64,000 bases of DNA, taken from positions 3,794 to 67,793 of the forward strand of contig JAFYQH010000057.1 in the NCBI GenBank assembly GCA_017547205.1, read 5' to 3'. The first letter of the stretch is position 1. Each line of letters starts with the position of its first letter. Positions 22,931-37,210 of this stretch are shown one piece after another. This DNA is from Bacteroidaceae bacterium (lineage in GTDB: Bacteria > Bacteroidota > Bacteroidia > Bacteroidales > Bacteroidaceae). Position numbers and translations under genes: made by a program. The notes below the pieces were generated by a model. It saw only the letters and a list, made by a program, of their open reading frames with translations, was not told where the DNA came from and ran no database searches.

Positions 22931-24133
22931 TTACTGGTTTACCCGTCCTGGGTACTGCTCAAGCGCTTTCCCTAGAAGGAATATAGCACGCTTGAGGTCG
23001 GCTTTGTCAATGGCATAGGCTATGCGCACTTCGTTCTTGCCGTAACCTTCCTCGCTGTAGAATCCCGACGCAGGAGCCATCATTATGGTTTCGCCTTCGT
23101 ATTCAAAATCAGTAAGACACCATTCACAGAACCTGTCGCTGTTATCAATAGGCAAGCGTGCCACGGTGTAGAAGGCACCCATCGGGATAGGGGAGTAGAC
23201 TCCCGGCAATTTATTCAGTTCATCAACCAGGCAATTACGGCGTTCAATATATTGCTCATAGGTGTTTATTGCATATGAACGTGGTGCATCGATAGATGCC
23301 TCAGCAACAATTTGGCCCAGCAATGGTGGACTCAGTCGTGCCTGGCAGAACTTCATGACAGCCTCGCGTACAGCCTTGTTCTTTGTGATAAGCGCACCTA
23401 TGCGTATTCCGCATTCCGAATAACGTTTTGATACAGAGTCGATAAGAACGACGTTCTCCTCAATCCCTTCCAAGTGGCAAGCCGATATGTACGGTGAACC
23501 GGTATATATGAATTCGCGGTAAACTTCATCTGAGAAGAGGAAAAGATTATGCTTCTTGACAAGGTCGCGTATTCGGTTCATCTCGTTGCGCGTATAAAGA
23601 TACCCGGTAGGGTTGTTCGGGTTACATATGAGTATGCCACGTGTACGCTCGTTTATGAGTTCCTCGAAGCGCTCCATAGGGGGCAGTGCGAAGGACTCGT
23701 CAATCGAAGAACGTATAGGACGTATTACTGCACCTGCAGATATTGCGAATGCCATATAGTTTGCATACGCTGGTTCAGGCACGATAATCTCGTCTCCTGG
23801 GTTAAGGCAAGTGAGGAATGCGAATAGAACGGCTTCGGAACCTCCCGATGTGACAATAATATCCTCGGGCTTCAGTTTTATCTGGTACTGGTCGTAGTAA
23901 CCGACAAGTTTCTCACGCAGTGAAAGGAAACCGTCACTTGGGCTGTATTCAAGAATTTTTTGGTCAAATTTCTTTATTGCTTCAATAGCAACCTCCGGCG
24001 AATCTAAATCCGGTTGGCCAATGTTGAGATGATAAACCTTCAATCCGCGTTCTTTTGCAGCATTGGCAAAAGGAGCCAGCTTGCGTATAGGAGAGGAAGG
24101 CATCAGAACAGCTCTTTCCGATAAATTTGGCAT
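22931..24133 (-). CDS. Class I/II PLP-dependent aminotransferase (aspartate/aromatic type)
   Basis: 400 aa. Contains MPSSPIRKLAPFANAAKERGLKVYHLNIGQPD...NPNNPTG...SVSKRYSECGIRIG (the PLP-Lys context). Confidence 0.85.
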   Translation of the reverse strand: MPNLSERAVLMPSSPIRKLAPFANAAKERGLKVYHLNIGQPDLDSPEVAIEAIKKFDQKILEYSPSDGFLSLREKLVGYYDQYQIKLKPEDIIVTSGGSEAVLFAFLTCLNPGDEIIVPEPAYANYMAFAISAGAVIRPIRSSIDESFALPPMERFEELINERTRGILICNPNNPTGYLYTRNEMNRIRDLVKKHNLFLFSDEVYREFIYTGSPYISACHLEGIEENVVLIDSVSKRYSECGIRIGALITKNKAVREAVMKFCQARLSPPLLGQIVAEASIDAPRSYAINTYEQYIERRNCLVDELNKLPGVYSPIPMGAFYTVARLPIDNSDRFCEWCLTDFEYEGETIMMAPASGFYSEEGYGKNEVRIAYAIDKADLKRAIFLLGKALEQYPGRVNQ

Positions 24134-24159
24134 AATGTTTTTTTCTTCAATTCAGTTTG

Positions 24160-24167
24160 CAAAATTA
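24160..24167 (-). promoter_or_regulatory. -7 promoter box (TAATTTTG on the minus strand) for the aminotransferase gene
   Basis: The reverse complement of caaaatta lies 27 nt upstream of the ATG at 24133. Confidence 0.4.
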
Positions 24168-24192
24168 CTTAAAATGACTGATATTTCAACCA

Positions 24193-24229
24193 TAATGATA
24201 AAAGATTATCTTTAATGATAAAACGATTA
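24193..24229. promoter_or_regulatory. Direct repeat pair in the divergent promoter region (candidate regulator-binding site)
   Basis: taatgataaaagatta (24193-24208) and taatgataaaacgatta (24213-24229), phased 20 bp apart. Confidence 0.3.
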
Positions 24230-24282
24230 GGAACACTTTTAAATGTTTTTTGGCAAATTGTCCTTTTTTACAATATTTTATC

Positions 24283-24290
24283 TATATTTG
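24283..24290 (+). promoter_or_regulatory. -7 promoter box (TATATTTG) for the tubulin-like cassette
   Basis: An exact TAnnTTTG match 62 nt upstream of the ATG at 24352. It is followed by the hairpin aattccg-gttgt-cggaatt (24292-24310). Confidence 0.45.
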
Positions 24291-24351
24291 CAATTCCGGT
24301 TGTCGGAATTTAATCTTCTGTGTTAGCAAAAACAAAAATTAAACATAAACT

Positions 24352-24975
24352 ATGAATGTACTTTGGGAAATACTCCAATTTTCAATAGGTAGCCTCTTTT
24401 GGGGAATATTTATCGCTGCAGTCTGCATGTTGCTTTTTTATTTTGCGATTAAAGGCTGGTGGAAGAATGCTGCTTTCACAGTCGTTACGTACATTGTAGG
24501 TGCATTGCTTTTTGTCCTGTTGTCTGTACAATGCATTATGATTTGCGGAGCTATAAAGATAATCTCTTTTACAGATGTCGTAGAGTACAGGACCAAAGAG
24601 ATTCTGGATTCGCGTCACATGTTCAATGTCGAGGTGTCGAGATCGGAAAGCGAAGACATAGTACAGGAATTGCTTGAAGAGTATCCCATATTCAGGAACT
24701 ATTTCGATTACGGATACTTCGAGGGCTATACGGTTGAGACACTTCCGACTGCAGTTGGTGAAGAGATACGCAGTTACTTGCGTGCGTTCATTGCGCGCCG
24801 TTTGCTTTGGTGTCTGGGATTTGTGGTAGTATCAGCAGTTATAGCAATTAAAACAATTTCGCTAAATAACGGTTCCGGTGGCCGTACCCGTGAACGTTCC
24901 GGGAGGCAGCCAATAGGCAGTGACCGTTCACGACCTCGTATAAGTGGTCATTCACGTACAAGAGGAATGAGATAA
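24352..24975 (+). CDS. Integral membrane protein (3 predicted TM helices) with an Arg-rich C-terminal tail. Cassette gene 1.
   Basis: TM candidates are SLFWGIFIAAVCMLLFYFAI, FTVVTYIVGALLFVLLSVQCIMICGAI and LLWCLGFVVVSAVIAI. The tail is GGRTRERSGRQPIGSDRSRPRISGHSRTRGMR. I recognise no family. Confidence 0.7.
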   Translation: MNVLWEILQFSIGSLFWGIFIAAVCMLLFYFAIKGWWKNAAFTVVTYIVGALLFVLLSVQCIMICGAIKIISFTDVVEYRTKEILDSRHMFNVEVSRSESEDIVQELLEEYPIFRNYFDYGYFEGYTVETLPTAVGEEIRSYLRAFIARRLLWCLGFVVVSAVIAIKTISLNNGSGGRTRERSGRQPIGSDRSRPRISGHSRTRGMR

Positions 24976-25001
24976 ATTAATTAAATATAAAACAACTTAT
25001 T

Positions 25002-28000
25002 ATGGAAACAAATTTTGTTAACGGCAATCACATCCTCGTTGGTTTAGGAGGTACCGGCGGTAAGATTCTGCGTGCGTTCAAGATGCGCATGTTCGAAGAG
25101 TTCCCAACTGCTGATGATCGCAAAAAGCTTCCGGTAGCTTTGTTGTATGTCGATTCTACCGACGAGATGATGCCTAAGGACGGCAGAGCCCGTCCCGATT
25201 TTCGTGTAATGGGACAAGACGCTTCGTTTACAAATAACGAGTTCCTGAATATCAAGGCAGTAGATGTTGAACACATACTTGACCATATCAACAACTATCC
25301 TTCGGTAAAAGGTATCGTTGACAATGTTCAGGCTGTACGCTCGGCAATTGGCTCTTTAGGCCAGGCTGCAGGACAGAAACGTCGTGCCGGCCGTCTCTTG
25401 TTTGCGGCAAATGCCGTAGGGTATGTAAACAGCCTTAAGGATGCCTATGCACGTTGCGAGGTAATTTCTACGAATGCCGAAAAGACCTATATACATATTT
25501 TTGCCGGCCTTTGCGGAGGAACCGGTTCGGGTTCTGTTGTGGATGTTATTCTACAGACACGTAAGACATTCCCCAATGCTAAGATTTCTGTCTATGCAAT
25601 GATTCCGGAGATGAACCTTCCTAAAGCGGATATGGACCAGGGCCGTTACTACCAGAACGGTTATGCGGCAATGAACGAGTTGAACGCTTTGCAGGTTGGC
25701 CGCTGGGTGCCTTGCGATGTAACAGGCGGAGGTCCTGCAAACCTGTATAACGACCGTGTCAAGGGTGTTGCCGACGGTTTGACTATCTACAGCAATGTAA
25801 ATGAGAATGGTCTCACTATAAATTCACTCGAAGAACTGCCGAAGATTGTAAGCGACTATATGTTTGCCCGTATATTCTTCATAAACGAAGAGGACCAGGT
25901 TAACGGTGATATTATTCGTTCTTACAATTTCGAGAATATGGACGATTTCGCATTGGAATATGACGAGGCTGCAAATGCAGGCCCAGATGGCCGTATTCCT
26001 GTGGCACGTACCAAGAAAATCAATTCATTCGGTATCAAGCGAGTGATGTATCCCGAACTCCGAGTGCTCAAGCACATCACATATACTATAGGCGAGAGCA
26101 TATTGTACCAGTTCAAATACAACAACTGGCGCGAGAACCTCGGATATGTTGACGAGGAGCGCAACAAGGACTATCGCAAAGAGTATTTCAATAAGGAGAA
26201 CCTTGCGAAATGGATGCTCGATGACCAGCATCTGACAATGGAGGTAAAGGTACTTGAATCCGATGCCGATTACCCAGGCTTCAACGACTATTGGCATGAC
26301 AAGGCTATCGGCTATGCCGAAGACGCCAAGAAGGCCGACTGTCCGCTCAACGAACTCGACACCATAATGGGTGAGTTCTATAGCAAGCATTTCCGCGAGG
26401 AGGGTGTTGAGGCATTCTTCCAGGGCAAGGAGAGGGTGATTCCCGAAATTGCACGTGAGATACGCCATGGCATAGAGGTAGAGCTATTCGAGAAATGGAA
26501 GCTAGGCGATGTTTCTATCGTTGAACTGCAGAAGGTTTCAAAACTCTTGCTTGAGCGTTTGGGAGAGATGCGCGAGGAACTCGAAACAAAAGAAAAAGAG
26601 GAGAAGCTCAATTATGATGCCTGCGAAGAGGACCGCAAGGCGAATGTCGAGGAGTGGAGCCGCTTGGGCATATTGCAGCGTATGGTTGGTGTTGGTGCAC
26701 GCCGTTATGCCGACCATCAAGGTATTCTCACCGACTATTACACCTCAAAGACAATGCTTTGTGCTTGGGAGTTCGCTAAGAAACTCTTGGCAAAAGTATT
26801 TGTAGAGATAGGCAAGATGGATGCCGACATATCTTCTTTCGGACAGAAGATAAACGAGGCTATCGATGAGACTGAGCGTTTGGTTACAGCACAGAAGAAG
26901 GTGAACAAGGGACTTGAGGATATGAAGGGTGCGATAATCGAAGTCAGCGAAGAGGAGGCTATGAGCGAGTTCGAGAAGGAACTCAAGATAGACAAGGTCG
27001 ATATGCCGAACATTGCCCGTCAGTTGCGTGAGTCTATTTTGCCTATCGGTGACTTTATCAATTTCGGTAATTTGGCAAACAGCATAAGCATCGATGACAT
27101 TAAGGATGCATTTGATGTGAAATTGTCCGAGATTGTAAAAATCAAGCACGACGAGAAGGCCGATAGCGATAGCAAGGTGCTGGGCTTGAATATTCTTACA
27201 CAGTTGCAGCAGAAGCTGAAGACAGATGATGATATAAAGGCTTTTGCTTCCAAGATTGTAAGTCAGAGTGGTGTATATCTGCGTTTGAACAACGACCAGA
27301 TTCAGTTGCATCTACGCAATAATGAGGGTAACCTCAGCCCTACAAACCCGGCAAGCATAAACAAGAAGGCTATTCTTGTCTCTATTCCGTCACCCGATGA
27401 GAATGAGGGTCTAAAGAAATTTGCCGATAAGCTTGAGGCTGCATTCAAGAACTCATTCAACCAGAGTACAGCCCGCACAACAATAACTGTTAACCGAAAG
27501 AGTCCACGTAAGGACGAACTTTCGATTATCACAGTATCATACTGTTTCCCGGTGCGTGGAATAGAATGGATGGTTCCTTATAGAGAGCGTTACAACAGAT
27601 TCCTGAATACAGGCAATCCTGCTACAGACAGGAGCAATGCCATTCTGTTGCACAGCGAAGGCGATGGAACTCAGTTGCCGTCACTCTTTGCTGTAGATAA
27701 CGCCGAAGAGATTGCTGCTAAGGCTGCGCAGGCAACAATGCAGACGGGCGTAAATGTACAACAACCTACAACCGGATTTGCGGCACCTCCACCAATGCCG
27801 GGTAATGCACCGGTTCCTCCTCCTGTTGCAGCTCCTATGCCTGATATAAAACTATTTATAGCAGTAGGCGGTCAGCAGTACGGTCCTTACAATATGGAAC
27901 AGTGCAGGCAGATGGTGCAGGGTGGTCAGTTGACAGCTCAAAGTACTGTTTGGATGGAGGGAATGCCATCTTGGACTCCTGCAGGCCAGGTTCCGGCTTT

Positions 28001-28088
28001 GCAGGCATTGTTTGCCCCCCCGGCTGCGGCACCAGGTTTGCCTCCGTTGCCTCCTATGGGTGGTCCGACACCTCCGCCAATGATGTGA
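25002..28088 (+). CDS. Giant tubulin/FtsZ-superfamily GTPase (Tubulin_2-like) with coiled-coil, Pro-rich and GYF_2-like C-terminal modules. Cassette gene 2.
   Basis: HILVGLGGTGGKIL (aa 10-23) is a T1-like Gly loop. FAGLCGGTGSGSVVDV (aa 167-182, nt 25515-25535) carries the exact GGTGSG tubulin signature core. A charged helical region spans roughly aa 500-720. PPPMPGNAPVPPPVAAPMP is followed by KLFIAVGGQQYGPYNMEQCRQMVQGGQLTAQSTVWMEGMPSWTPAGQVPALQALF (nt ~27849-28013, GYF_2-like). The protein ends in the tail PGLPPLPPMGGPTPPPMM. Confidence 0.75.
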   Translation: METNFVNGNHILVGLGGTGGKILRAFKMRMFEEFPTADDRKKLPVALLYVDSTDEMMPKDGRARPDFRVMGQDASFTNNEFLNIKAVDVEHILDHINNYPSVKGIVDNVQAVRSAIGSLGQAAGQKRRAGRLLFAANAVGYVNSLKDAYARCEVISTNAEKTYIHIFAGLCGGTGSGSVVDVILQTRKTFPNAKISVYAMIPEMNLPKADMDQGRYYQNGYAAMNELNALQVGRWVPCDVTGGGPANLYNDRVKGVADGLTIYSNVNENGLTINSLEELPKIVSDYMFARIFFINEEDQVNGDIIRSYNFENMDDFALEYDEAANAGPDGRIPVARTKKINSFGIKRVMYPELRVLKHITYTIGESILYQFKYNNWRENLGYVDEERNKDYRKEYFNKENLAKWMLDDQHLTMEVKVLESDADYPGFNDYWHDKAIGYAEDAKKADCPLNELDTIMGEFYSKHFREEGVEAFFQGKERVIPEIAREIRHGIEVELFEKWKLGDVSIVELQKVSKLLLERLGEMREELETKEKEEKLNYDACEEDRKANVEEWSRLGILQRMVGVGARRYADHQGILTDYYTSKTMLCAWEFAKKLLAKVFVEIGKMDADISSFGQKINEAIDETERLVTAQKKVNKGLEDMKGAIIEVSEEEAMSEFEKELKIDKVDMPNIARQLRESILPIGDFINFGNLANSISIDDIKDAFDVKLSEIVKIKHDEKADSDSKVLGLNILTQLQQKLKTDDDIKAFASKIVSQSGVYLRLNNDQIQLHLRNNEGNLSPTNPASINKKAILVSIPSPDENEGLKKFADKLEAAFKNSFNQSTARTTITVNRKSPRKDELSIITVSYCFPVRGIEWMVPYRERYNRFLNTGNPATDRSNAILLHSEGDGTQLPSLFAVDNAEEIAAKAAQATMQTGVNVQQPTTGFAAPPPMPGNAPVPPPVAAPMPDIKLFIAVGGQQYGPYNMEQCRQMVQGGQLTAQSTVWMEGMPSWTPAGQVPALQALFAPPAAAPGLPPLPPMGGPTPPPMM

Positions 28089-28127
28089 TAATAAGATTTT
28101 AGATAACAATTCAAATAAGAAATAAAA

Positions 28128-28751
28128 ATGGCAAGTAACAGTAACGATAGAATTCGTTTCAGATATGGAATGTGTTTGAACGATGGTTGTTCAAAAGCAA
28201 AGGCAAAAGAGGTGCAGCAGATTCCGGCACGTAAGGAATTTGTTTGTGCCGAGTGTGGAAAGGCATTGCGCGAATGCCCTCCTCCCCCAAAAGGTGGCAA
28301 TACAAAGTTAATAATAGCGATTGTAGCCATTATTGCAGTATTGGCGGGTGGAGCTGCATTATGGTATATGACTTCAGAAAAACCGACACAAACGACAACA
28401 CATGCTGGAGAGGGTGGTGGAAAATCGGATACTACTATAGTAGCAGATACTTTAACTCAGAAGCCACAAACACCTGCTAAAGATGGTGGCAAGAAGAAGG
28501 CTCCCGTTGTTAATCAGGTTGTTACTAAGGATTTTGGCTATGCAGTTTACAAAGGCCGCATGAAGAACGGTAAGATGCACGACGATAATGGCGTGCTTAC
28601 ATTCAAGAAGGCACACATTATAGAGCCACGTGATATCAAACAGCGTACAGCGCAGCCTGGCGAAAGAGTTACCGGAATTTTTGAGGACGGACACCTTGTA
28701 ACAGGTACCTGGCATAAAAATGATGGCAACAAAGAATCAATAATTCCCTAA
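28128..28751 (+). CDS. Zn-ribbon / PPPP motif / single TM / MORN-like repeat protein. Cassette gene 3.
   Basis: The segment CLNDGC...(19 aa)...CAECG forms a 4-Cys ribbon. It is followed by ECPPPPKGG (nt 28278-28298) and the TM helix LIIAIVAIIAVLAGGAALWYM. The C-terminus has YKGRMKNGKMHDDNGVLTF and GIFEDGHLVTGTWHKNDG, which are MORN-like. Confidence 0.65.
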   Translation: MASNSNDRIRFRYGMCLNDGCSKAKAKEVQQIPARKEFVCAECGKALRECPPPPKGGNTKLIIAIVAIIAVLAGGAALWYMTSEKPTQTTTHAGEGGGKSDTTIVADTLTQKPQTPAKDGGKKKAPVVNQVVTKDFGYAVYKGRMKNGKMHDDNGVLTFKKAHIIEPRDIKQRTAQPGERVTGIFEDGHLVTGTWHKNDGNKESIIP

Positions 28752-28756
28752 CACTT

Positions 28757-29743
28757 GTGAATAATCTGTTTAAAACAGTATATTGTTCTCTATTCATTAT
28801 GCTACTCCCGCTATCTTTGTGGGGGCAGCATAATGGCATTTTGGGTGACAGGTTACGTAACGAGGCACTGAAGGCTTCGGAAGAGATTCCCGCAATATCG
28901 GTGCTCTTTAATTTCGCTGAACGTTATTTGGGAATGCTGCGGGACATGGACAATGCCGAACGTTCATCTCGCATGCAGCGCGATGATGTACGCATATTAA
29001 AGGGAAGTGTAGAGGCTCTTGCCCGGATAAACGATAAGACATCTTGGGCTTTTGCCGAGAAGAATGACAGGTATAACCTGCTCATATCCAATTCAGGAAC
29101 TCCTTTGATAGAGATGTCTGTCCCGGCATCTTGTCAGTTGCTTACAGGAAAGAATCTCAAGGAACTTGAACGTGATTTCTTTGCCGGGCTTGACAATTAT
29201 TCGTTCAGAGTTGTCGATACGTTGTCGGCCGATGTTTCGGAATGCGAACATCTCCACGGAAACTATTACCTTAAACCAGGTGAGTCGTACCAGATTAAAG
29301 AAATAAACAGCAACCTTTATCTGGAAAATGTTGACAATAGCCTGCAATTGGTATTCGATGTCGATCATCCGGCTGAGAGTTGTCACAATCTTCTTCTATT
29401 GGAGACATGCCCCGGAGATGTGTTGTTGCAGCTAGTTGTACGTAAATACGGATTAAAGAAAGAAGAACGTACTTTACCTCTGCGGCTATGGCTATCGTAT
29501 CTGAAGGTACTCGGATGCAATATATACATAGGAGTAGAAGAGATGAATGCCGACCATATCAGAGTTGCATTCTTTGCAGTCAATACAATAATGAGGTTCA
29601 ATCACATAATGAATGCCGAAGTACCATACTCAATCTTCAAGGATGGTAAGGGGACTGTAAAAGGTGACCTCAATACGTTTATTCCAACTCACAATATATC
29701 GGCACTGTTTGATGAACTGAATCAACATTCCGGCGGTAAGTGA
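28757..29743 (+). CDS. Signal-peptide protein of unknown family. Cassette gene 4.
   Basis: GTG start 5 nt after the previous stop. Signal peptide MNNLFKTVYCSLFIMLLPLSLWGQ. No recognisable motifs. Confidence 0.65.
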   Translation: MNNLFKTVYCSLFIMLLPLSLWGQHNGILGDRLRNEALKASEEIPAISVLFNFAERYLGMLRDMDNAERSSRMQRDDVRILKGSVEALARINDKTSWAFAEKNDRYNLLISNSGTPLIEMSVPASCQLLTGKNLKELERDFFAGLDNYSFRVVDTLSADVSECEHLHGNYYLKPGESYQIKEINSNLYLENVDNSLQLVFDVDHPAESCHNLLLLETCPGDVLLQLVVRKYGLKKEERTLPLRLWLSYLKVLGCNIYIGVEEMNADHIRVAFFAVNTIMRFNHIMNAEVPYSIFKDGKGTVKGDLNTFIPTHNISALFDELNQHSGGK

Positions 29744-29772
29744 CAGATAGATACGGTTAAAAAACAATAATT

Positions 29773-30501
29773 ATGAAAAAGTCTTTTATACTATTTATTT
29801 TAGGTATCAGTTTTGCTTGTGTTATTAATGCACAGAATAATGACGATACAAAAGCACAGATAAACAAAATCAAACGCTCTACGCAGTATCTTTCGGCCGA
29901 GGCTACAATGGCAACGGAAGAGGAGGCATTGAACTTGGCAAGAGAGCTGCTAGTCGCAGAGATAAACGATTGGGTTGCTTCGAAAAGAAAAGGCGCAGAA
30001 GTCAAGCAGGTTGTTCTACAGGATATAAATTCATGTGCCCAGCAGATGGATATGAAACGAGGTGTAAAGACCCGTGCATTTCTCTATGTAAAGAAGAAAG
30101 ATATAGTGCTGATATATGGTGAAGGCCAGATTGTGCTGAACAATGAGGAGAGTGGAGTTGACTTGCAGCCCCTATCGGAGATATCCACCCCGTTGCAGAA
30201 TGATGTCGCCGTTGTCGAAAATGCCGAAGATACATCTTTTAAGAAGATATTGGGTGCAAAGACAATGACAGACTTGAAACCGATTTTTGCTTCATTGAAG
30301 AATGACGGCAAGATAAAATATGGCAGCTACAATTCAGATATAGTTCTGGAAGAGTGTTATTTGCTGTTCTACACACGCGAAGGCAATATAAAGTCCATTG
30401 TCCGCAAGAACAGAGACAATTACACTGATGCAAAGGGCAAAAAGACAATTAACCTGTCCGACTTCAGCGGTTGTGGTGCATATTGGTTCATTTTACAGTA
30501 A
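29773..30501 (+). CDS. Signal-peptide protein of unknown family. Cassette gene 5.
   Basis: Signal peptide MKKSFILFILGISFACVINAQ. Gap to the upstream gene is 29 nt. Confidence 0.7.
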   Translation: MKKSFILFILGISFACVINAQNNDDTKAQINKIKRSTQYLSAEATMATEEEALNLARELLVAEINDWVASKRKGAEVKQVVLQDINSCAQQMDMKRGVKTRAFLYVKKKDIVLIYGEGQIVLNNEESGVDLQPLSEISTPLQNDVAVVENAEDTSFKKILGAKTMTDLKPIFASLKNDGKIKYGSYNSDIVLEECYLLFYTREGNIKSIVRKNRDNYTDAKGKKTINLSDFSGCGAYWFILQ

Positions 30502-30519
30502 AAGTATAAATATAATATT

Positions 30520-31518
30520 ATGAGAAATTTATTACGTTGGCTGACGGTTGCCGTTTGTTTTTCTGCAATAGTTACCGTCAATGCACAGGAAGGAGTTAAA
30601 TTGGAGATTGTAGATGGTCTGTATAATGATGCTCTGAAAACAAAAATGGAGAGGTCGGCAAGCCGGTTGCTTACCGAGATAAATGCTGCATACAACGATA
30701 ACCGCGCATTGAACCTGGTAAACATGGGTCTTTCCGACGGTGCTGTCAGCGGTCTTGCAGCCCTTTGGGAGAATGTTCATTTCTATTGCGACGACAGTGA
30801 GGTAGTGCAGTCTTGTCTTACTGTGGGCAATACTTATCAGGTGCGCCAAATTCCATTAATGATCAAGCCTCAAGGCGAGAGCCTCGATGATGAATATCAG
30901 GAGGCTGTCATAAACTTTGACGCTACGGGCAAAATAACACGTTTCAATTTTACGCTTAGCACAAATGTCTATCAGAATGTGATGAAGAAGGGCAAGACCG
31001 TAACAGAAGTCAGCCGTCGTCAACAGATTCTCTCCTATGTTGAGCAGTTCCGTACAGCATATAATGAAAAGGATATTGTTTTCCTGGAGAATATCTTTAG
31101 TGAGGATGCTCTTATCATCACTGGTACTGTAACAAAAGTCAGGAAGACTGACGGTGTTGGTATATCATACAATAAGGTAACATATAAGAAACAGAACAAA
31201 CAGCAGTATATCGCTAACCTGAAAAGAAGCTTTGCGAGCAACAAGTGGATAAATGTGCTCTTTGAGGATGTAAAGGTTGTCAAGCATCCGAATCCTATGA
31301 TGGAAGGCTTCTATGGTGTAACAGTCCGTCAGAAGTACTCAAACAGCCGTGGTTACAGCGACGATGGCTATCTTTTCCTATTGTGGGATTTCCGCGACAA
31401 GGACAATGTTCAGATACACGTACGTACATGGCAACCTTACTGGATGGACGACAATAAGACACAGCCTATTGCAAAAGAAGATGTCTTTACACCTGGGGAT
31501 TTTGTAATTGACCTATAA
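30520..31518 (+). CDS. Signal-peptide protein whose C-terminal half is possibly NTF2/SnoaL-like. Cassette gene 6.
   Basis: Signal peptide MRNLLRWLTVAVCFSAIVTVNAQ. The C-terminal pattern is ILSYVEQFRTAYNEKDIVFLENIFSEDALIITG...YIANLKRSF...FYGVTVRQKY...GYLFLLWDF. Gap is 18 nt. Confidence 0.65.
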   Translation: MRNLLRWLTVAVCFSAIVTVNAQEGVKLEIVDGLYNDALKTKMERSASRLLTEINAAYNDNRALNLVNMGLSDGAVSGLAALWENVHFYCDDSEVVQSCLTVGNTYQVRQIPLMIKPQGESLDDEYQEAVINFDATGKITRFNFTLSTNVYQNVMKKGKTVTEVSRRQQILSYVEQFRTAYNEKDIVFLENIFSEDALIITGTVTKVRKTDGVGISYNKVTYKKQNKQQYIANLKRSFASNKWINVLFEDVKVVKHPNPMMEGFYGVTVRQKYSNSRGYSDDGYLFLLWDFRDKDNVQIHVRTWQPYWMDDNKTQPIAKEDVFTPGDFVIDL

Positions 31519-31529
31519 TTCAAATAGTT

Positions 31530-32927
31530 ATGAAGGTGTTGGAAAAGATAATCCTTTTATCGCTCTTGTTATTCATTGCTGTTGTAAAGATAAACGCACA
31601 GGACTACAATACAGTCCTTGTGTCACCGGTAGAGAATAAGGACAAGACAGCCCCGGCTGACGGAGTTATCATTATAATTACATCGAACTGCGACAATCTC
31701 ATAATGTCGCATAGTGTAGGAATAGAGAAGGGTGTAAAGAGTATCGAAAGCAACGGACGCTACAAATACACTATAGAATATACATTCCCCGAGGATTATG
31801 ATGATGATTTCATGAAGACGCAATTGCAGTTGCGCTTGCCTATAGGCCAGGAAACAGTTCCGCTCACAATGTACAAGGGAAAGGTGTATGAAGGTGAATA
31901 CAATGAACGTACAAGCATTGCTGTAAACCGTGAGAAGGATGCCGTTTATCCATATGCCAAATTCGCTAAGGTTACTTTCATGTCGGCATTTACCAACCTT
32001 ACCATATCGTGCAACGGTATCGTATGTTTCGAAAACGGCAAGCCAGTTTCGTTGAGCAACTGCAACATGAAGGCATCTACCGAAACGGTTGGCGAACAGA
32101 AGGACTATGCAATTGTATTCAACCTCGCTCCCGAGACCAAGGGCAAAAACGATGTCACTGGCAATGCTATATTCAAGATAAGCTCTCCCGATTTCAGCAG
32201 TGTTGAAGTCAAACAGGATGAATTGGTTGGCCGTACCTCCTATCTGTTTATGGTGGTAAGGGCAAACGGTGAAACATACGAAGAGGTGCTTGCTATTGCC
32301 CAGGAAAAGGAATCGGGTTATGAGAAAGAGACTACAAGTGCATATTTTGCGGCTGTTGCCGATGCATACGAAGCTGCAAGCAAGCATTTGCAGTGCCCTG
32401 TTGACAAGAAAGAAACTCATCAGATACAGGCAAACAAGTTCAAGAAGATACGTAACCACACAAATGCCATAAACCAGGCCGACGAGCGTTGGCGCAAGGT
32501 CGCTGCAGATGAGGGTTTCGAATCGTCCAATGTGTGGAAATACCTGAATTTTGAACGTAAGCGTCTGCGTGCGTTGATTGAGGAGTTCCCCGAAATGGAG
32601 TATTATACCAAACTGTTGAGTGAGATAGATGCCGAATATATGAAGCACCCCTCATCTACAGTTGAATATCCGGTTATCAAGGGAACCGTTTCTGCTGGTG
32701 ACGGTTGGATATTCCCAGTGGATATAGATATATACGCATCGGATGTATATATAGACGGCATCGGTGATGTGAAGAAACACAACCTTAAGAAAGTTGGTAC
32801 AGTGCAAGGTGGCAAATATTCGATAACATTGCGCGAAAAATGCAAATATCTCTATTTCCAGGGAGAGAGCCGTTCGCATTCTATCGAGTACGTGACACAG
32901 ACACTTGACGTGGAGCTAGTTCCATGA
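31530..32927 (+). CDS. Signal-peptide protein of unknown family (beta-rich N-terminus, helical middle, beta-rich C-terminus). Cassette gene 7.
   Basis: Signal peptide MKVLEKIILLSLLLFIAVVKINAQ. Gap is 11 nt. Confidence 0.7.
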   Translation: MKVLEKIILLSLLLFIAVVKINAQDYNTVLVSPVENKDKTAPADGVIIIITSNCDNLIMSHSVGIEKGVKSIESNGRYKYTIEYTFPEDYDDDFMKTQLQLRLPIGQETVPLTMYKGKVYEGEYNERTSIAVNREKDAVYPYAKFAKVTFMSAFTNLTISCNGIVCFENGKPVSLSNCNMKASTETVGEQKDYAIVFNLAPETKGKNDVTGNAIFKISSPDFSSVEVKQDELVGRTSYLFMVVRANGETYEEVLAIAQEKESGYEKETTSAYFAAVADAYEAASKHLQCPVDKKETHQIQANKFKKIRNHTNAINQADERWRKVAADEGFESSNVWKYLNFERKRLRALIEEFPEMEYYTKLLSEIDAEYMKHPSSTVEYPVIKGTVSAGDGWIFPVDIDIYASDVYIDGIGDVKKHNLKKVGTVQGGKYSITLREKCKYLYFQGESRSHSIEYVTQTLDVELVP

Positions 32928-32968
32928 TTAAACATAACATTATTAGTATAATATTAAATTAAAAAACT

Positions 32969-33766
32969 ATGAAGACATTGACAAAAGTGATGGTTGCAAT
33001 GCTTGCAGTCATGATGATGGTACCTATGAGTGCAGAAGCTTCGAGTCAGAAGAAAAAGAAAGAAAAGAAAAAATTTGAGTGGGTTATGCCCGAACTGACA
33101 GGAAATGAAAGCTTTGACCAGTATTTGTTAAGCTGTGACACCATTTGGAACAGGACTAAGGTCGTTGCCGAGAATATGCACACCTATACATTCAAGACCG
33201 ACACATTGCGTGGAATTAATGGTTCAGATTATGTTATGGCCCACATGGAAGATGCTTCAGGTGCGTATCTTACTCGCGGTGCAGTTACATGGCAGCTGAT
33301 TGAAGCAATCAAGGAAGGTGCCGGCATTGTACTCGATATTGCAAACATCGGTGTCCTGACAGCTGCGGCAACAACAGCATTGCCGGGTCTGGGCGTTAAG
33401 GCACTGTCTTACGGCAAGTATCTTAAATCGGGACCGAAAATCATTCAAGGTTGCGGTTCTGAGATTAAGGAGATTGCAGCAGTACGCCGTCAGCAATACC
33501 AGCAGTGGAAGTCTATGAAAGAGGGTGCTGTCGATGCGTCAACACTAGGTATATGGAACGAGGAGCAGCTGAAGTCTCTCTCCAAGTGCTGTTTCATCAC
33601 TAAGCTCGACACTACCACAAGCCGTGAGCTTACTCCCGAAGAGGTTGCTGCTCAGGAGGCTCTTATGGGCGGTTTGAACATATCTGTCGCACCAGAGGTG
33701 TTAGGCCAGACACTCGATGCCGAGCCAGAGGACCTCGATGCCCTCATGGAAGCCGAGGGTGTTTGA
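32969..33766 (+). CDS. Signal-peptide protein with a poly-Lys stretch and an acidic tail. Cassette gene 8.
   Basis: MKTLTKVMVAMLAVMMMVPMSAEASSQKKKKEKKKFEW... There is an internal hydrophobic segment, GIVLDIANIGVLTAAATTALPGLGV. The acidic C-terminus is AEPEDLDALMEAEGV. Confidence 0.7.
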   Translation: MKTLTKVMVAMLAVMMMVPMSAEASSQKKKKEKKKFEWVMPELTGNESFDQYLLSCDTIWNRTKVVAENMHTYTFKTDTLRGINGSDYVMAHMEDASGAYLTRGAVTWQLIEAIKEGAGIVLDIANIGVLTAAATTALPGLGVKALSYGKYLKSGPKIIQGCGSEIKEIAAVRRQQYQQWKSMKEGAVDASTLGIWNEEQLKSLSKCCFITKLDTTTSRELTPEEVAAQEALMGGLNISVAPEVLGQTLDAEPEDLDALMEAEGV

Positions 33767-33780
33767 TAACCCCAGTGCAC

Positions 33781-33832
33781 TATATAAAATATTTGGAACA
33801 GCAGAACTCTGCTGTTCCAAATATTTTATATA
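33781..33832 (+). terminator. Strong hairpin (24-bp perfect stem) after cassette gene 8
   Basis: tatataaaatatttggaacagcag-aact-ctgctgttccaaatattttatata. The GC-rich core is followed by an A/U-rich tract. Confidence 0.7.
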
Positions 33833-33845
33833 ACTTTACCGTTAA

Positions 33846-35585
33846 ATGAAACCTATTGTTTGTGTTGCTATGAATAGAGCATTTATCCTTTTTATACTGT
33901 CACTGTTTTCCTTTTCAATATATGCCCAGAACATACGTGTGGAGTCTTTCGGCATTGTCATGAACGATGCCACAGCATCTGCTTCTCCTGTACTGGATGC
34001 CAATGATGACCCTTGTGCTCTCATACGTCTTGTAACCACCGACAAGGAATATGAAATAGACGGCAACATCAAACGTGTTGAGAAGACGGGCGAGCTGCTC
34101 TTCTATGTTCCTTCCGGTACCCGTCAAGTGACAATACGCCACAGCAGCTTAGGTGTCCTGAACTACTCCTTTGAGCAGCGTCTGCAGTCAAAGGCCACAT
34201 ACAGAATGGTTCTGCCGTCGAACACCATCGTAATACATAGTGAGGACAGAGGCGGCCATTATCTTGTGATGAGGATTGTCCCGGCCAATGCCGTAGTGCA
34301 TATAGACGGAATGCTGGAGAATGTGAGAGATGGCCTGTTGCAGAAATTCCTCCCTTATGGCATGCATACCTATCGTGTAGAAGCTCCATTATACAGCATG
34401 GAGGAGGGGAGTGTGGAGATAGGGCGTGAGAAGAAACAACTGGACATATCTCTGAAACCCAATTTTGCCAATGTTACACTAAAGGCACAAGGTGCTGAGA
34501 TAAAAGTGAACAGCGAGTCCAAAGGCAACGGCTCATGGAGCGGCCGCCTCAATCCCGGAACATATCTGGTGGAAACTGTAAAGCCCGGATACCGCAACGC
34601 TTCATATACTCTTGTCGTTGTTAGCGGAGAGGACAGAAGTGTAGACTTGCCGATGCCTACACCCATGTACGCATCGCTCGATGTAAGCAGTAATGCAGTG
34701 AATGGCAGTGTCTATGTCGATGGTAAGCATATTGGCAACACCCCTGACATATTCAAGGTACTTGCCGGGAAGCATACCGTTGAATTGCGCGCAAACGGTT
34801 ATGAATCGAAGAGCTATACAGTTGAACTGGCCGAGGGAGAAGCTAAAAAATTATTTGCAGAACTTAAGGAAACTGCCAAATCTACATATGGAGGACAGGC
34901 AACAACCGCTTCATCAAGTAGTAATTGCACTATCAATGGCCACGAATATGTTGATTTGGGTTTGCCAAGCGGACTTAAATGGGCAACCTGCAATGTAGGT
35001 GCAAATGCGTCAGAAGAGTATGGCAATTATTATGCCTGGGGCGAGACAAAAACCAAGAAAAGTTATAATACAGGTAATAGCAAAACCTGTGGAGAAAGCA
35101 ATGTCCCTTCTGATATAAGCGGAATCCATGCATACGATGCAGCCCTTAAGAACTGGGGCGGCAGTTGGCGTATGCCCACATGGGAAGAATTTAAGGAACT
35201 GCTGAAATATTGTACCTGGACCTGGGCATCCCGTAACGGCAAGAATGGCTATGAGGTCAAGAGCAAGAAGAATGGTAACAGCATCTTTCTGCCTGCGGCC
35301 GGTTACCGCTGTGATGGGTGGTCCAACTACGATGGGGCTCGCGGTTGCTATTGGAGTGCTACGCCTGTCGAGAGCAATCCCATATTAAACATAATTTGGG
35401 GTAGTTCCTCGAGTGCGTACAGCCTTTTCTTCGATAATAGTGGCAAACTCATCGATATTGCCGAGGACCACATGTATTGGCACATACGTTACCACGGTCT
35501 AAGTGTTCGCCCAGTCCTCGAAGAGGAGAAAGCTATATTAATTGAATTTGAGAAGCGAGACCGAAACCAGGAGCAGCTACAATGA
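33846..35585 (+). CDS. PEGA-repeat protein with a C-terminal DUF1566 / Fibrobacter-paralogous-type domain
   Basis: The signal peptide is best read from the alternative start at 33870 (MNRAFILFILSLFSFSIYAQ). PEGA-like repeats include VYVDGKHIGNTPDIFKVLAGKHTVELRANGYESKSYTVEL. The C-terminus has INGHEYVDLGLPSGLKWATCNVGA...YYAWGE...WRMPTWEEFKELL...IFLPAAGYR...YWSATP. Confidence 0.75.
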   Translation: MKPIVCVAMNRAFILFILSLFSFSIYAQNIRVESFGIVMNDATASASPVLDANDDPCALIRLVTTDKEYEIDGNIKRVEKTGELLFYVPSGTRQVTIRHSSLGVLNYSFEQRLQSKATYRMVLPSNTIVIHSEDRGGHYLVMRIVPANAVVHIDGMLENVRDGLLQKFLPYGMHTYRVEAPLYSMEEGSVEIGREKKQLDISLKPNFANVTLKAQGAEIKVNSESKGNGSWSGRLNPGTYLVETVKPGYRNASYTLVVVSGEDRSVDLPMPTPMYASLDVSSNAVNGSVYVDGKHIGNTPDIFKVLAGKHTVELRANGYESKSYTVELAEGEAKKLFAELKETAKSTYGGQATTASSSSNCTINGHEYVDLGLPSGLKWATCNVGANASEEYGNYYAWGETKTKKSYNTGNSKTCGESNVPSDISGIHAYDAALKNWGGSWRMPTWEEFKELLKYCTWTWASRNGKNGYEVKSKKNGNSIFLPAAGYRCDGWSNYDGARGCYWSATPVESNPILNIIWGSSSSAYSLFFDNSGKLIDIAEDHMYWHIRYHGLSVRPVLEEEKAILIEFEKRDRNQEQLQ

Positions 35586-35689
35586 TGATTACGCTGAAAT
35601 ATTATACCTGGACCTGGGAAAGCTATCCCCGCAAGCGGTGCAAAAAATCAGTAAAACCCACTACTCCAAATAAAACCACTTTTGAATGA
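35582..35689 (+). pseudogene. Possible remnant of a paralogous DUF1566-type gene
   Basis: Positions 35593-35619 (gctgaaatattatacctggacctggg) match 35201-35227, inside the upstream CDS, at 26 of 27 nt. The remnant reads MMITLKYYTWTWESYPRKRC... for 35 codons. Confidence 0.3.
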
Positions 35690-35700
35690 TAATAAATATT

Positions 35701-35903
35701 ATGTTTAATATGGTTTTGATATTTGCACGCTATCCTGGATTCTCGTACATTTTTCGAAATTTCCGTAAGCAGGTGAAAATACATAATTAATAATTAAACA
35801 TGTCTTATGTTTAATATGGTTTTGATATTTGCACACAATCCTGGATTACGTACAGTTTTTCGAAATTTTCGTAAGCAGGTGATATTTGCACACAACCTGA
35901 ATT
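35701..35903. repeat. Tandem direct repeat (two 76-bp copies with a 106-bp period, plus a partial third copy)
   Basis: Copy 1 (35701-35776) is atgtttaatatggttttgatatttgcacgctatcctggattctcgtacatttttcgaaatttccgtaagcaggtga. Copy 2 (35807-35882) is about 90% identical. gatatttgcacacaacctgaatt (35881-35903) repeats the core a third time. Confidence 0.85.
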
Positions 35904-35930
35904 TTTTGTAACTTGCATAATAAATTTCAT

Positions 35931-36260
35931 ATGACTATGAACGATAACAGAATTCTTAGACTTATTGACTCCTCGTACAAGGAGTGTGAGGTTACCGGTA
36001 GAGATATGGGTGGAGATTACACATTTGAGATTCCTGTAGCAGACCTTGCCCTTGGATATGTTGAGTGGACTTCTGATTTTAGGCCAAACCATGGTGTCAA
36101 CATTGTTGAAATTGGTGAGAAATATATAAAGCTCGAAGTTATATCTGTTTCGCGCCAGTCCAGAGATTCCTATACACTCTATGTTGGAGACAAAAAGAGC
36201 ATGAATTATATGTTCGGTGAATGGAGTTTTGGCTATACGATATCTGTTGAGAATAGATAA
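35931..36260 (+). CDS. Small hypothetical protein, apparently translationally coupled to the downstream Dus gene
   Basis: MTMNDNRILRLIDSSYKECEVTGRDMGGDYTFEIP... Its stop, TAA at 36258-36260, overlaps the ATG at 36260-36262 (TAATG). The ORF-track start at 35913 is a TTG. Confidence 0.5.
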   Translation: MTMNDNRILRLIDSSYKECEVTGRDMGGDYTFEIPVADLALGYVEWTSDFRPNHGVNIVEIGEKYIKLEVISVSRQSRDSYTLYVGDKKSMNYMFGEWSFGYTISVENR

Positions 36261-37210
36261 TGAATCAACAGTATGCCATGAAAATATATTCAGCACCTCT
36301 TCAGGGATTTACTGAGGCTGTTTGGCGTAATGTGCATTCAGGGGTTTTTGGCGGCATCGATGGCTACTATACGCCCTTCCTGCGTTATGAGCATGGCGAG
36401 ATACGCAGCAAGGATGTGCGTGACATTGAGCGCAAGAATAATTCCGTGGAGAATCTTGTTCCGCAGATAATCGTTGCAACTCCCGATGAGATGCACCCGC
36501 TCATGGAACTGTTAGTCAATGAAGGCTACAGCCGTGTGGATATAAACATGGGCTGTTCTTTCCCCCTGCAGATGCGCAAGAAACATGGTGCCGGGCTGCT
36601 CCCCTATCCCCATATGGTCGCATCGATACTCAAGGCCACAGCCGATTATCCCGGGTTCAAGTTTTCGGTTAAGATGCGTCTGGGGTGTGAAAGCAAGGAC
36701 GAATGGCGCGCCTTGCTGCCAATCTTGAACGATACGCCTTTGGAGCATATAACCATGCATCCACGCCTTGGTGTCGAGCAATACAAGAAACCGGTTGATA
36801 TTGACGCTTTTGCCGAGTTTTATTTGGCTTGCACTCATCCAGTGATATATAATGGCGACTTGCTAACTTTTGGCGATATCAAGCGTGTGGAAAATGATTT
36901 CCCCGGCCTTAAAGGCATAATGCTCGGACGGGGACTACTTGCAAACCCGGCTCTTGGTATTGAATACCATAACAGCCGTGCAATGGCCGATGATGAACTG
37001 TGTGCTTTGGTGCAACGCATGCACGATACCATGTTCCGCGAACTGTCACCACGCCTGCAGGGTAATACACAATTCCTTACAAAGATGAAACCCTATTGGG
37101 AGTACCTTCTTCCTACCCTTCCAAAGCGTTTGCGCAAGCCCATTCTCAAATCAACGACAATAGAGAAATACCAGATTGCAGTGGCGAATGCATTGCGAGG
37201 AGAGTGGTAA
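36260..37210 (+). CDS. tRNA-dihydrouridine synthase family protein
   Basis: Contains APLQGFTEAVWRNV...VDINMGCSFP...KMRLG...HPRLGVEQYKKP, the Dus TIM-barrel pattern with a catalytic Cys context. Confidence 0.8.
   Translation: MNQQYAMKIYSAPLQGFTEAVWRNVHSGVFGGIDGYYTPFLRYEHGEIRSKDVRDIERKNNSVENLVPQIIVATPDEMHPLMELLVNEGYSRVDINMGCSFPLQMRKKHGAGLLPYPHMVASILKATADYPGFKFSVKMRLGCESKDEWRALLPILNDTPLEHITMHPRLGVEQYKKPVDIDAFAEFYLACTHPVIYNGDLLTFGDIKRVENDFPGLKGIMLGRGLLANPALGIEYHNSRAMADDELCALVQRMHDTMFRELSPRLQGNTQFLTKMKPYWEYLLPTLPKRLRKPILKSTTIEKYQIAVANALRGEW

Follow-up and report, generated by a model that had tools for sequence, protein, structure and literature searches.

Here we describe g3, a small predicted membrane protein encoded in a 64,000-nucleotide (nt) stretch of a Bacteroidaceae genome (contig JAFYQH010000057.1, positions 3,794 to 67,793; the window). 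Its gene is the third of a tight operon of at least eight genes, g1 to g8, which are separated by gaps of 5–41 nt (Table 1), and it comes directly after the gene for g2, a member of the FtsZl1/Tubulin_2 branch of the tubulin superfamily. Pfam assigns residues 11–367 of g2 to Tubulin_2 (E 1.4e-43) and residues 952–1000 to GYF_2 (E 3.8e-16). A preliminary description of this DNA had noticed a GYF_2-like domain on the GTPase adjacent to g3. The domain is real and homologous to the GYF domain of GltJ: residues 951–1019 match PDB 7z3c (GltJ GYF domain, Myxococcus) at E 8e-6, the sole match of g2 among PDB sequences, and the NCBIfam model gliding_GltJ matches at 1.1e-5. Species-representative genomes were scanned and 80 loci found, almost all of them in records labelled Bacteroidales, the closest being from a Bacteroidaceae metagenome-assembled genome (MAG; 86%); a few lie in MAG bins labelled Lactococcus, Lachnospiraceae, Firmicutes, Clostridium or Treponema. 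The operon spans Prevotella, Bacteroides, Paraprevotella, Phocaeicola, Muribaculaceae, Tannerellaceae and Paludibacteraceae, and the order g1–g6 is kept in essentially all loci. The position of g3 directly after the Tubulin_2 gene holds in 79 of 82 loci, the remaining three being contig ends. Where individual loci have to be told apart, they are designated by L numbers.

Table 1. Positions in the window of the operon genes and of the features discussed in g2 and g3.
Feature	Position	Strand	Remarks
g1, polytopic membrane protein, 207 residues	24352..24975	+	three hydrophobic segments; first operon gene; cytoplasmic block
g2, FtsZl1/Tubulin_2 protein, 1028 residues, C-terminal GYF_2	25002..28088	+	Pfam
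Pro-rich tract upstream of GYF_2 in g2 (AAPPPMPGNAPVPPPVAAPMPD)	27780..27845	+	
GYF_2 domain of g2	27855..28001	+	Pfam; PDB 7z3c match
Pro-rich C-terminal tail of g2 (PPAAAPGLPPLPPMGGPTPPPMM)	28017..28085	+	
g3, predicted bitopic membrane protein, 207 residues	28128..28751	+	ATG 28128, TAA 28749-28751
Zinc-ribbon-like domain, predicted cytoplasmic, g3 residues 11-50	28158..28277	+	C16, C21, C40, C43; extra C50
Juxtamembrane PPPPKGG, g3 residues 51-57	28278..28298	+	family motif L-R-E-[C/V]-P-P-P-[K/R]
Single transmembrane helix, g3 residues ~60-82	28305..28373	+	hydropathy maximum 2.71 (Kyte-Doolittle)
Predicted periplasmic linker, g3 residues 83-129	28374..28514	+	disordered; rich in Thr, Pro, Gly, Lys
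MORN-like beta-hairpin domain, g3 residues 130-207	28515..28748	+	two hairpins, conserved ~20-residue insert between
g4, 328 residues	28757..29743	+	signal-peptide-like N-terminus; periplasmic block
g5, 242 residues	29773..30501	+	signal-peptide-like N-terminus; periplasmic block
g6, secreted protein, 332 residues	30520..31518	+	weak NTF2-like match Cds6_C
g7, 465 residues	31530..32927	+	signal-peptide-like N-terminus; same-sized gene at same position in L001, L083-L088
g8, 265 residues	32969..33766	+	signal-peptide-like N-terminus; last of conserved set
g9, PEGA + CarboxypepD_reg, 579 residues	33846..35585	+	signal peptide; possible ninth gene, 79 nt after g8

With more than 140 homologues (143 at E≤1e-3) and strict synteny, g3 is not a chance open reading frame. 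Pfam and NCBIfam scans assign no family to it, and its public copies are unnamed or hypothetical. When the 60-residue N-domain was compared with 1.84 billion representative proteins, 176 clusters were returned, nearly all with lengths of 190–390 residues and the N-domain at residues 1–60; the MORN-like C-domain described below was also found in 109 of the 148 newly returned representative proteins examined. The family is narrow, unnamed, undescribed and restricted to Bacteroidales. Its outlier is P0254 (308 residues), in which two tandem, related Cys-rich N-domains are present and a helical, TPR-like C-terminus replaces the MORN-like domain; the C-terminus of P0268 (387 residues) is also different and helical. 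The g2 and g3 genes share a reading frame and lie 39 nt apart with four in-frame stops, including that of g2, and nothing points to read-through. When g3 was scanned by itself with Pfam, NCBIfam and PADLOC, the matches were to CwsA, FliL, TrbK and New_glue, which were rejected as compositional, being sub-threshold and confined to the transmembrane or low-complexity stretch; the CwsA match recurs in 15 of 61 orthologues, every time below its cut-off. An anti-sigma-like reading of the arrangement (zinc-binding domain, transmembrane helix, periplasmic domain) was dropped because g3 gave no zf-HC2 match and the operon has no sigma factor.

The N-terminus of g3 is basic and carries Cys residues at positions 16, 21, 40, 43 and 50, the last of which directly precedes the prolines. 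Column conservation was counted over 69 orthologous operons. C16, C21, C40 and C43, which make up two knuckles, are invariant (69/69), C50 is present in 59, and a sixth Cys at position 24, which is Ala in the window, is present in 57. The preliminary description had proposed a four-Cys ribbon; the arrangement C-x4-C...C-x2-C stands, and the count is amended to five by C50. AlphaFold2 modelling of g3 was based on a 61-sequence alignment. In a model cropped to residues 1–62, the stretch 11–50 reaches a predicted local distance difference test (pLDDT) score of ~90, with strands at 11–16, 29–33 and 46–49. In a Foldseek search with the cropped N-domain, used qualitatively only, the best matches all belong to zinc-ribbon proteins (Rpb12/RpoP, Nop10, archaeal ribosomal Zn proteins and the SIRT2 Zn module), none of them significant (E≥1.4, best E 1.4), and Pfam Zn_Ribbon_TF matches 5 of 61 orthologues at E≤0.01. 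We accept "zinc-ribbon-like" as a description, and the domain is predicted to bind zinc. Six Cys residues in the pattern C-x4-C-x2-C-x15-C-x2-C-x6-C are found in 50 of 69 orthologues, C24 being absent from the window and C50 from the type B loci defined below; the extra residues raise the question of a second metal or alternative ligands in some members.

As the preliminary description had it, one transmembrane helix comes right after the prolines. Its sequence is poorly conserved, with 5–13 identities to orthologues over 22 positions. The 15 residues flanking the helix contain on average 3.8 Lys and Arg on the N side versus 1.5 on the C side, and the N side is the richer one in 73 of 85 g3 orthologues. 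This positive-inside bias, the Cys cluster on the N side, the Big_2 inserts on the C side and the signal-peptide-like starts of the downstream products together favor a topology with the N-terminus inside and the C-terminal module outside the cytoplasm, the orientation that had been proposed. The stretch that follows the helix is predicted to be disordered: residues 73–122 fall within a segment of pLDDT <50, the means of 10-residue blocks over residues 81–120 are 36–42, and DSSP assigns neither helix nor strand between residues 73 and 130. Identities to orthologues in the linker number 3–8 over 28–47 aligned columns. In many orthologues the region from the helix to the MORN-like domain accommodates one or two Big_2 Ig-like domains, and these inserts stretch the periplasmic stalk from ~50 to ~200 residues (P0017-P0076; L001 10001-10903; L086 6001-7092).

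The C-terminal domain is modelled with high confidence (pLDDT ~95 over residues 130–207), with strands at 131–135, 139–146, 152–159, 180–186, 189–196 and 202–205. Two hairpins, 139–146/152–159 and 180–186/189–196, have the form of ~23-residue Gly-rich repeat units, and the signature YKGRMKNGKMHDDNG is present in the sequence; the MORN-like units are YKGRMKNGKMHDDNGVLTF (141–159) and GIFEDGHLVTGTWH (183–196). The domain is not an uninterrupted tandem MORN array, as there are only two hairpins and an insert occupies residues 160–179. A Foldseek search with the full-length g3 model, used qualitatively only, gave no match at E≤0.001. Pfam MORN (PF02493) does not match the window g3 even at E≤1; it matches 22 of 61 orthologues at E≤0.01 (best 3.1e-7), and the family profile matches the solved structures of MORN4 (6jle, 2.5e-5) and MORN1 (6t6q, 1.5e-4). 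The two units reported in the preliminary description are thus present and find their relatives through the family profile, but the window protein alone gives no Pfam MORN match, and we accept "MORN-like" as the description of an atypical domain. The accompanying suggestion that such repeats contact membranes or the cell wall reflects an older view. Structural work has reclassified MORN repeats as protein-protein and dimerization modules (PMC7725318), which fits a protein partner in the periplasm, and the g3 domain co-varies with the secreted proteins g4–g6.

That co-variation was measured by a mirror-tree comparison of pairwise distance matrices over 68 complete loci and the window (69 operons), for which g1, the g2 N-domain, the g2 middle, the g3 N-half (up to the helix), the g3 C-half (last 80 residues), g4, g5 and g6 were aligned separately. 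Two blocks emerged. Within the cytoplasmic block (g1, g2 and the g3 N-half) the correlations are rho 0.55–0.88: the g3 N-half correlates with the g2 middle at 0.73, the g2 N-domain at 0.60 and g1 at 0.55, and g1 co-varies with g2 and the g3 N-half at 0.55–0.65. Within the periplasmic block (the g3 C-half, g4, g5 and g6) they are 0.66–0.83, the g3 C-half following g6 best (0.83), then g5 (0.70) and g4 (0.66). Across blocks rho is 0.08–0.31, and the two halves of g3 itself correlate at 0.08 (Mantel p ~0.1, versus p ~0.001 for the within-block pairs tested). The same two blocks were obtained within the GYF-bearing type A loci alone (n=64).

Saturation does not account for this two-block pattern, since clear reassortants are found among the loci. 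In the window, L003 and L004, a cytoplasmic block of type A is joined to a periplasmic block shared with L001 (type B) and L083–L085 (type C). Relative to the latter four loci, the window is 66–72% identical in the g3 C-half and 66–80% in g6, but only 27–51% in the tubulin domain; relative to Prevotella-type loci, it is 79–88% identical in the tubulin domain but only 31–51% in the MORN-like domain. The same contrast can be read within single g3 proteins. Compared with L001 (Bacteroides sp. GM023), the window g3 has 20/49 identities in the zinc ribbon and 58/78 in the MORN-like domain; compared with Xylanibacter brevis (L014), it has 37/50 and 31/74, respectively. L001 and L074 have near-identical zinc ribbons and different MORN variants. 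By these sequence comparisons the operon is an evolutionary mosaic with a seam inside g3, the crossover lying in the helix and linker, both of which are poorly conserved. In g3 the boundary between domains is also that between modules, as expected if g3 were the physical junction between the cytoplasmic and periplasmic modules. The two blocks, the periplasmic one including g4–g8, have reassorted several times among Bacteroidales, a history that may reflect diversifying selection on the half that faces the envelope.

Since the C-domain shows the strongest partner co-variation (rho up to 0.83) and MORN repeats mediate dimerization and protein-protein contacts (PMC7725318), g3 might do no more than anchor a periplasmic g4–g8 complex, with no direct g2 contact and a zinc ribbon that serves folding or self-association. 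Three observations speak against this reading, which we consider very unlikely: the zinc ribbon and the proline motif are highly conserved, their divergence follows the type of g1 and g2 rather than the periplasmic variant, and the position of g3 directly after g2 is invariant.

How g3 would reach g2 is a separate question. The preliminary description had placed the motif PPPPKGG correctly (Table 1) and had taken its four prolines for a docking site for the GYF_2 domain of g2. The first three are conserved (P51 in 66, P52 in 60 and P53 in 67 of 69 operons). The fourth is not kept: position 54 is Lys in 31, Arg in 15 and Pro in 7 of 69. The segment has a pLDDT of ~55 in the cropped model and is therefore modelled as exposed and flexible. 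The loci were grouped by the presence of the motif in g3 and of its supposed reader in g2. In type A (~71 loci, including the window), g2 carries a Pro-rich tract, GYF_2 and a Pro-rich tail, and g3 reads ECPPP[K/R], with EVPRP, EVPAP and ECPAP as rarer variants. In type B (L001, L006, L053, L074 and L079, from Bacteroides sensu stricto and Tannerellaceae), the g2 C-terminus is helical with no GYF_2 by Pfam or phmmer, and g3 retains the prolines as VPPPKEGP, VPPPRQS or VPPPKPP. Type C (L083–L085) has neither GYF_2 nor PPP. In L086 and L088, GYF_2 is found by both Pfam and phmmer (E 3e-15), and g3 is without PPP (LHEVKSTPKGPNWK and LHEVKVGGGGINKK). GYF_2 is thus absent from a whole clade of operons. 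As all four combinations of motif and reader occur, PPP cannot be an obligatory GYF_2 ligand, and docking fails in both directions the check by conservation that the preliminary description had set.

Better candidates for such a ligand are found on the chain of g2 itself. Over 71 GYF-bearing g2 orthologues, the 44 residues upstream of GYF_2 average 25% Pro and the tails of ~23 residues after it 47%, compared with only 2.8% for the first 880 residues, and the extreme C-terminus has the conserved pattern PPLPP..PPPxM (PPLPP..GG.TPPPMM). These tracts are gained and lost together with GYF_2 and are therefore the more economical ligand candidates. It is more likely that GYF_2 and its own flanking tracts mediate self-association of g2 or recruit another factor. 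The constant bracketing of the domain by Pro tracts would suit self-binding or multivalent networking of g2.

There is nonetheless a case for a single contact in which the juxtamembrane prolines, as a linear ligand of GYF_2, would anchor tubulin-like filaments to the inner face of the membrane. The GYF_2 domain is genuine, and its homologue in GltJ has micromolar affinity for a proline-rich sequence (PMC11135422). In the cropped model the PPP segment is exposed and flexible, it is paired with GYF_2 in all ~71 type A loci, and type C, which lost PPP, is also without GYF_2. Weighed against this are the double dissociation provided by type B on one side and by L086 and L088 on the other, the variable fourth proline, the PRP and PAP variants inside GYF-bearing operons, the Pro tracts that always accompany GYF_2, and the co-variation of the g3 N-half with g2. 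Within type A this co-variation is best for g2 residues 321–640 (rho 0.57–0.66) and reaches 0.45 for the GYF and tail region; the comparison, itself a weak one, would lend no support to a GYF contact. On these sequence patterns, docking of PPPP onto GYF_2 is probably not how g3 links to g2. We regard the single-contact scheme as quite unlikely, and a GYF_2 contact of the prolines that is merely accessory, in type A, as improbable to a similar degree. The cytoplasmic contact is more likely to involve the zinc ribbon together with the juxtamembrane segment, acting as one unit, and as its partner the central region of g2, g1 or both. If so, a two-hybrid assay of a PPPP-to-AAAA mutant against GYF_2 alone would probably miss the real contact.

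Conservation of the prolines could also have a simpler cause. A stiff polyproline spacer and helix breaker would account for the fixed position of PPP, directly after the last zinc-ribbon strand and 5–12 residues before the helix, for its retention independently of GYF_2, for the tolerance of PRP, PAP and APP variants, and for a segment modelled as non-globular. The motif might in addition be a translational throttle of the EF-P-dependent kind, by which g3 would be held at a low copy number; the PPP motif of CadC, a bitopic regulator of E. coli, reportedly works in this way. We consider the spacer and throttle unlikely, if less so than docking onto GYF_2. Gly-rich replacements in L083, L085 and L088 make the prolines dispensable in some lineages, and the strict L-R-E-C-P-P-P-K/R conservation resembles a recognition epitope more than a simple spacer.

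A regulatory role can be considered on similar grounds. In this scheme g3 would be a switch or sensor whose zinc ribbon regulates the GTPase cycle or assembly of g2 according to the state of the periplasmic complex, in the manner of the GltJ zinc ribbon, to which the GTPase-activating protein (GAP) MglB is recruited. An adjacent zinc ribbon is present in about 44% of bacterial GYF proteins, and the pair forms a switch in GltJ (PMC11135422). Here the two are split between adjacent genes, an arrangement that is notable because the pairing is so frequent, and in type A no part of g3 is better conserved than the zinc ribbon. However, the g3 ribbon shows no sequence or fold similarity to that of GltJ (7Z0K is absent from the profile matches to E 10 and from the best 50 of 54 Foldseek matches), the operon contains no MglA, MglB or AglZ-like gene, and the ribbon is also present where GYF_2 is absent. 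A switch of this kind seems improbable, though as a rival reading it stays in contention.

On balance we lean towards the view that g3 serves a Bacteroidales-specific FtsZl1 (Tubulin_2) operon as its bitopic adaptor in the inner membrane, with the orientation N-in, C-out. On the cytoplasmic side, the four-Cys zinc ribbon and the flexible, basic L-R-E-C-P-P-P-K/R segment would belong to the g1/g2 module; a single helix would cross the membrane and continue into a disordered stalk, whose length varies and which in some orthologues includes one or two Ig-like domains; and on the periplasmic side the two-hairpin MORN-like domain would dock onto the secreted proteins g4–g6. In this way g3 may couple the cytoplasmic assembly of the tubulin-like protein to a periplasmic complex, in a role comparable to those of RodZ with MreB and of GltJ in the Agl-Glt machinery. 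The broader proposal of the preliminary description, a bitopic tether of the GTPase to the envelope, draws support from the near-constant adjacency to the Tubulin_2 gene and from the seam that separates cytoplasmic and periplasmic blocks. What the analysis shows is the anatomy of g3, its synteny, the predicted folds and the two-block co-variation with a seam in the linker; contacts between the proteins, topology, zinc binding and the direction of coupling are inferred from these.

Several points weigh against the adaptor reading. Adjacent DNA shares a recombination history, so that co-variation shows co-inheritance and is merely consistent with contact, and if the linker, a low-complexity stretch, were a hot spot of recombination, the seam would fall at the same place. 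The signal that links the g3 N-half to g2 residues 321–640 is weak and confounded by information content, and the modelled zinc-ribbon fold is assigned without a significant structural match. Finally, the T7 loop was not found in FtsZl1 (PMC2875224), which bears on filament formation.

A more far-reaching extension of the adaptor model, possible but rather doubtful at present, is that the whole operon encodes a trans-envelope machine of gut Bacteroidales in which the g2 GTPase and g1 are coupled, mechanically or allosterically, through g3 to an exchangeable periplasmic or outer cassette. The cassette would consist of the g3 MORN-like domain and g4–g8, swapped repeatedly between lineages by crossover in the g3 stalk. 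If true, cassette swapping would suggest that the envelope-facing half is under diversifying selection by, for example, phage, host immunity or competitors, with the cytoplasmic engine held constant.

The five or six gene products downstream of g3 (g4–g9) all start with signal-peptide-like segments. The Cds6_C match of g6 (E 1.6e-4) is below the Pfam cut-off, and a single-sequence search with g6 against PDB sequences gave no match. Homologues of g9 lie downstream in 31 loci, and also in L085, where the protein additionally has LysM, and L087; g9 may be a ninth, wall-associated component. At the other end of the operon, g1 is present in 72 loci, and its tail after the last hydrophobic segment is a low-complexity Arg/Ser/Gly-rich sequence (GSGGRTRERSGRQPIGSDRSRPRISGHSRTRGMR). 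The flanking genes are housekeeping genes (gyrA, an aminotransferase, TrmD and Dus). In L001 (16177-18085), genes for an AAA_15/AAA_21 ATPase and a DUF4435 protein lie directly downstream of the operon; this pair, typical of defence loci, is absent from the window. A defence-island reading was dropped, as PADLOC gave no defence-system match for g1–g9. A scan of positions 23900–36400 for sigma-70 promoters and terminators, which does not cover Bacteroidales promoters, found no more sites than in shuffled sequence.

FtsZl1/Tubulin_2 is the most divergent branch of the tubulin superfamily and has been known since 2010 with no established function or partner; our literature search for functional studies of the Bacteroidales members gave the 2010 description and a 2023 phylogeny in which the family is an outgroup. 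Prevotella and Bacteroides, both dominant in the gut, commonly carry operons with g3. Probably the transmembrane junction, g3 offers an entry point to this uncharacterised tubulin-like system, with a cultured carrier (Xylanibacter brevis ATCC 19188, L014), defined domains and predicted contacts. The seam within g3 predicts that function needs a C-domain matched to g4–g6, and not to g2.

The closest parallel in architecture is RodZ, which has a small cytoplasmic N-domain, a basic juxtamembrane stretch, one helix, a disordered periplasmic linker and a small beta-rich C-domain. g3 shares this layout and a predicted job, the connection of a cytoplasmic polymer to periplasmic partners. The two are not homologous: a zinc ribbon replaces the helix-turn-helix and a MORN-like domain replaces DUF4115, neither of the RodZ domains having a Pfam match in g3 at E≤1, and the partner is a Tubulin_2 protein instead of the actin-like MreB. 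ZipA and FtsA are conceptually similar in that a tubulin-superfamily protein is held at the inner membrane; both bind the C-terminal peptide of FtsZ and are not known to have a periplasmic partner domain. By comparison, g3 has a fold of its own, and its main conserved partner domain is predicted to lie outside the cytoplasm. With MORN1, MORN4 and the junctophilins g3 shares hairpin repeats with a Y-x-G-x-[WM]-x-x-G-K-x-H-G-x-G-like signature, and it differs from MORN proteins in having two hairpins only, a ~20-residue insert and a predicted periplasmic location.

FtsZl1 was described by Makarova and Koonin in 2010, with a Bacteroides caccae member included, and its operons were predicted to encode membrane-associated multiprotein complexes (PMC2875224). 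The g3 operon belongs with these through g2 and the adjacency of g3 to it. The typical partners in that description are a vWA protein, a P-loop GTPase, kinases and OmpA-family proteins, none of which was found among g1–g9 in Pfam and NCBIfam scans. Most lineage-specific partner genes were called domain-less there, the Bacteroidales partners came under "lineage-specific, no recognizable domains", and g3 was not described (PMC2875224); the g3 operon is the Bacteroidales version, specific to that lineage. GltJ, a membrane protein that has both a zinc ribbon and a GYF domain, links a cytoplasmic platform to a periplasmic machine, and its GYF domain binds a proline-rich sequence of AglZ (PMC11135422). 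The g3 system has the same set of parts: a zinc ribbon, a GYF_2 domain, a transmembrane anchor and a periplasmic module. In GltJ (zinc ribbon, linker, GYF, transmembrane helix, periplasmic domain) they form one polypeptide, whereas here the ribbon is on g3 and GYF_2 on g2. By these comparisons g3 would act as a transmembrane cytoskeleton adaptor akin to RodZ and GltJ, but it is a member of neither family.

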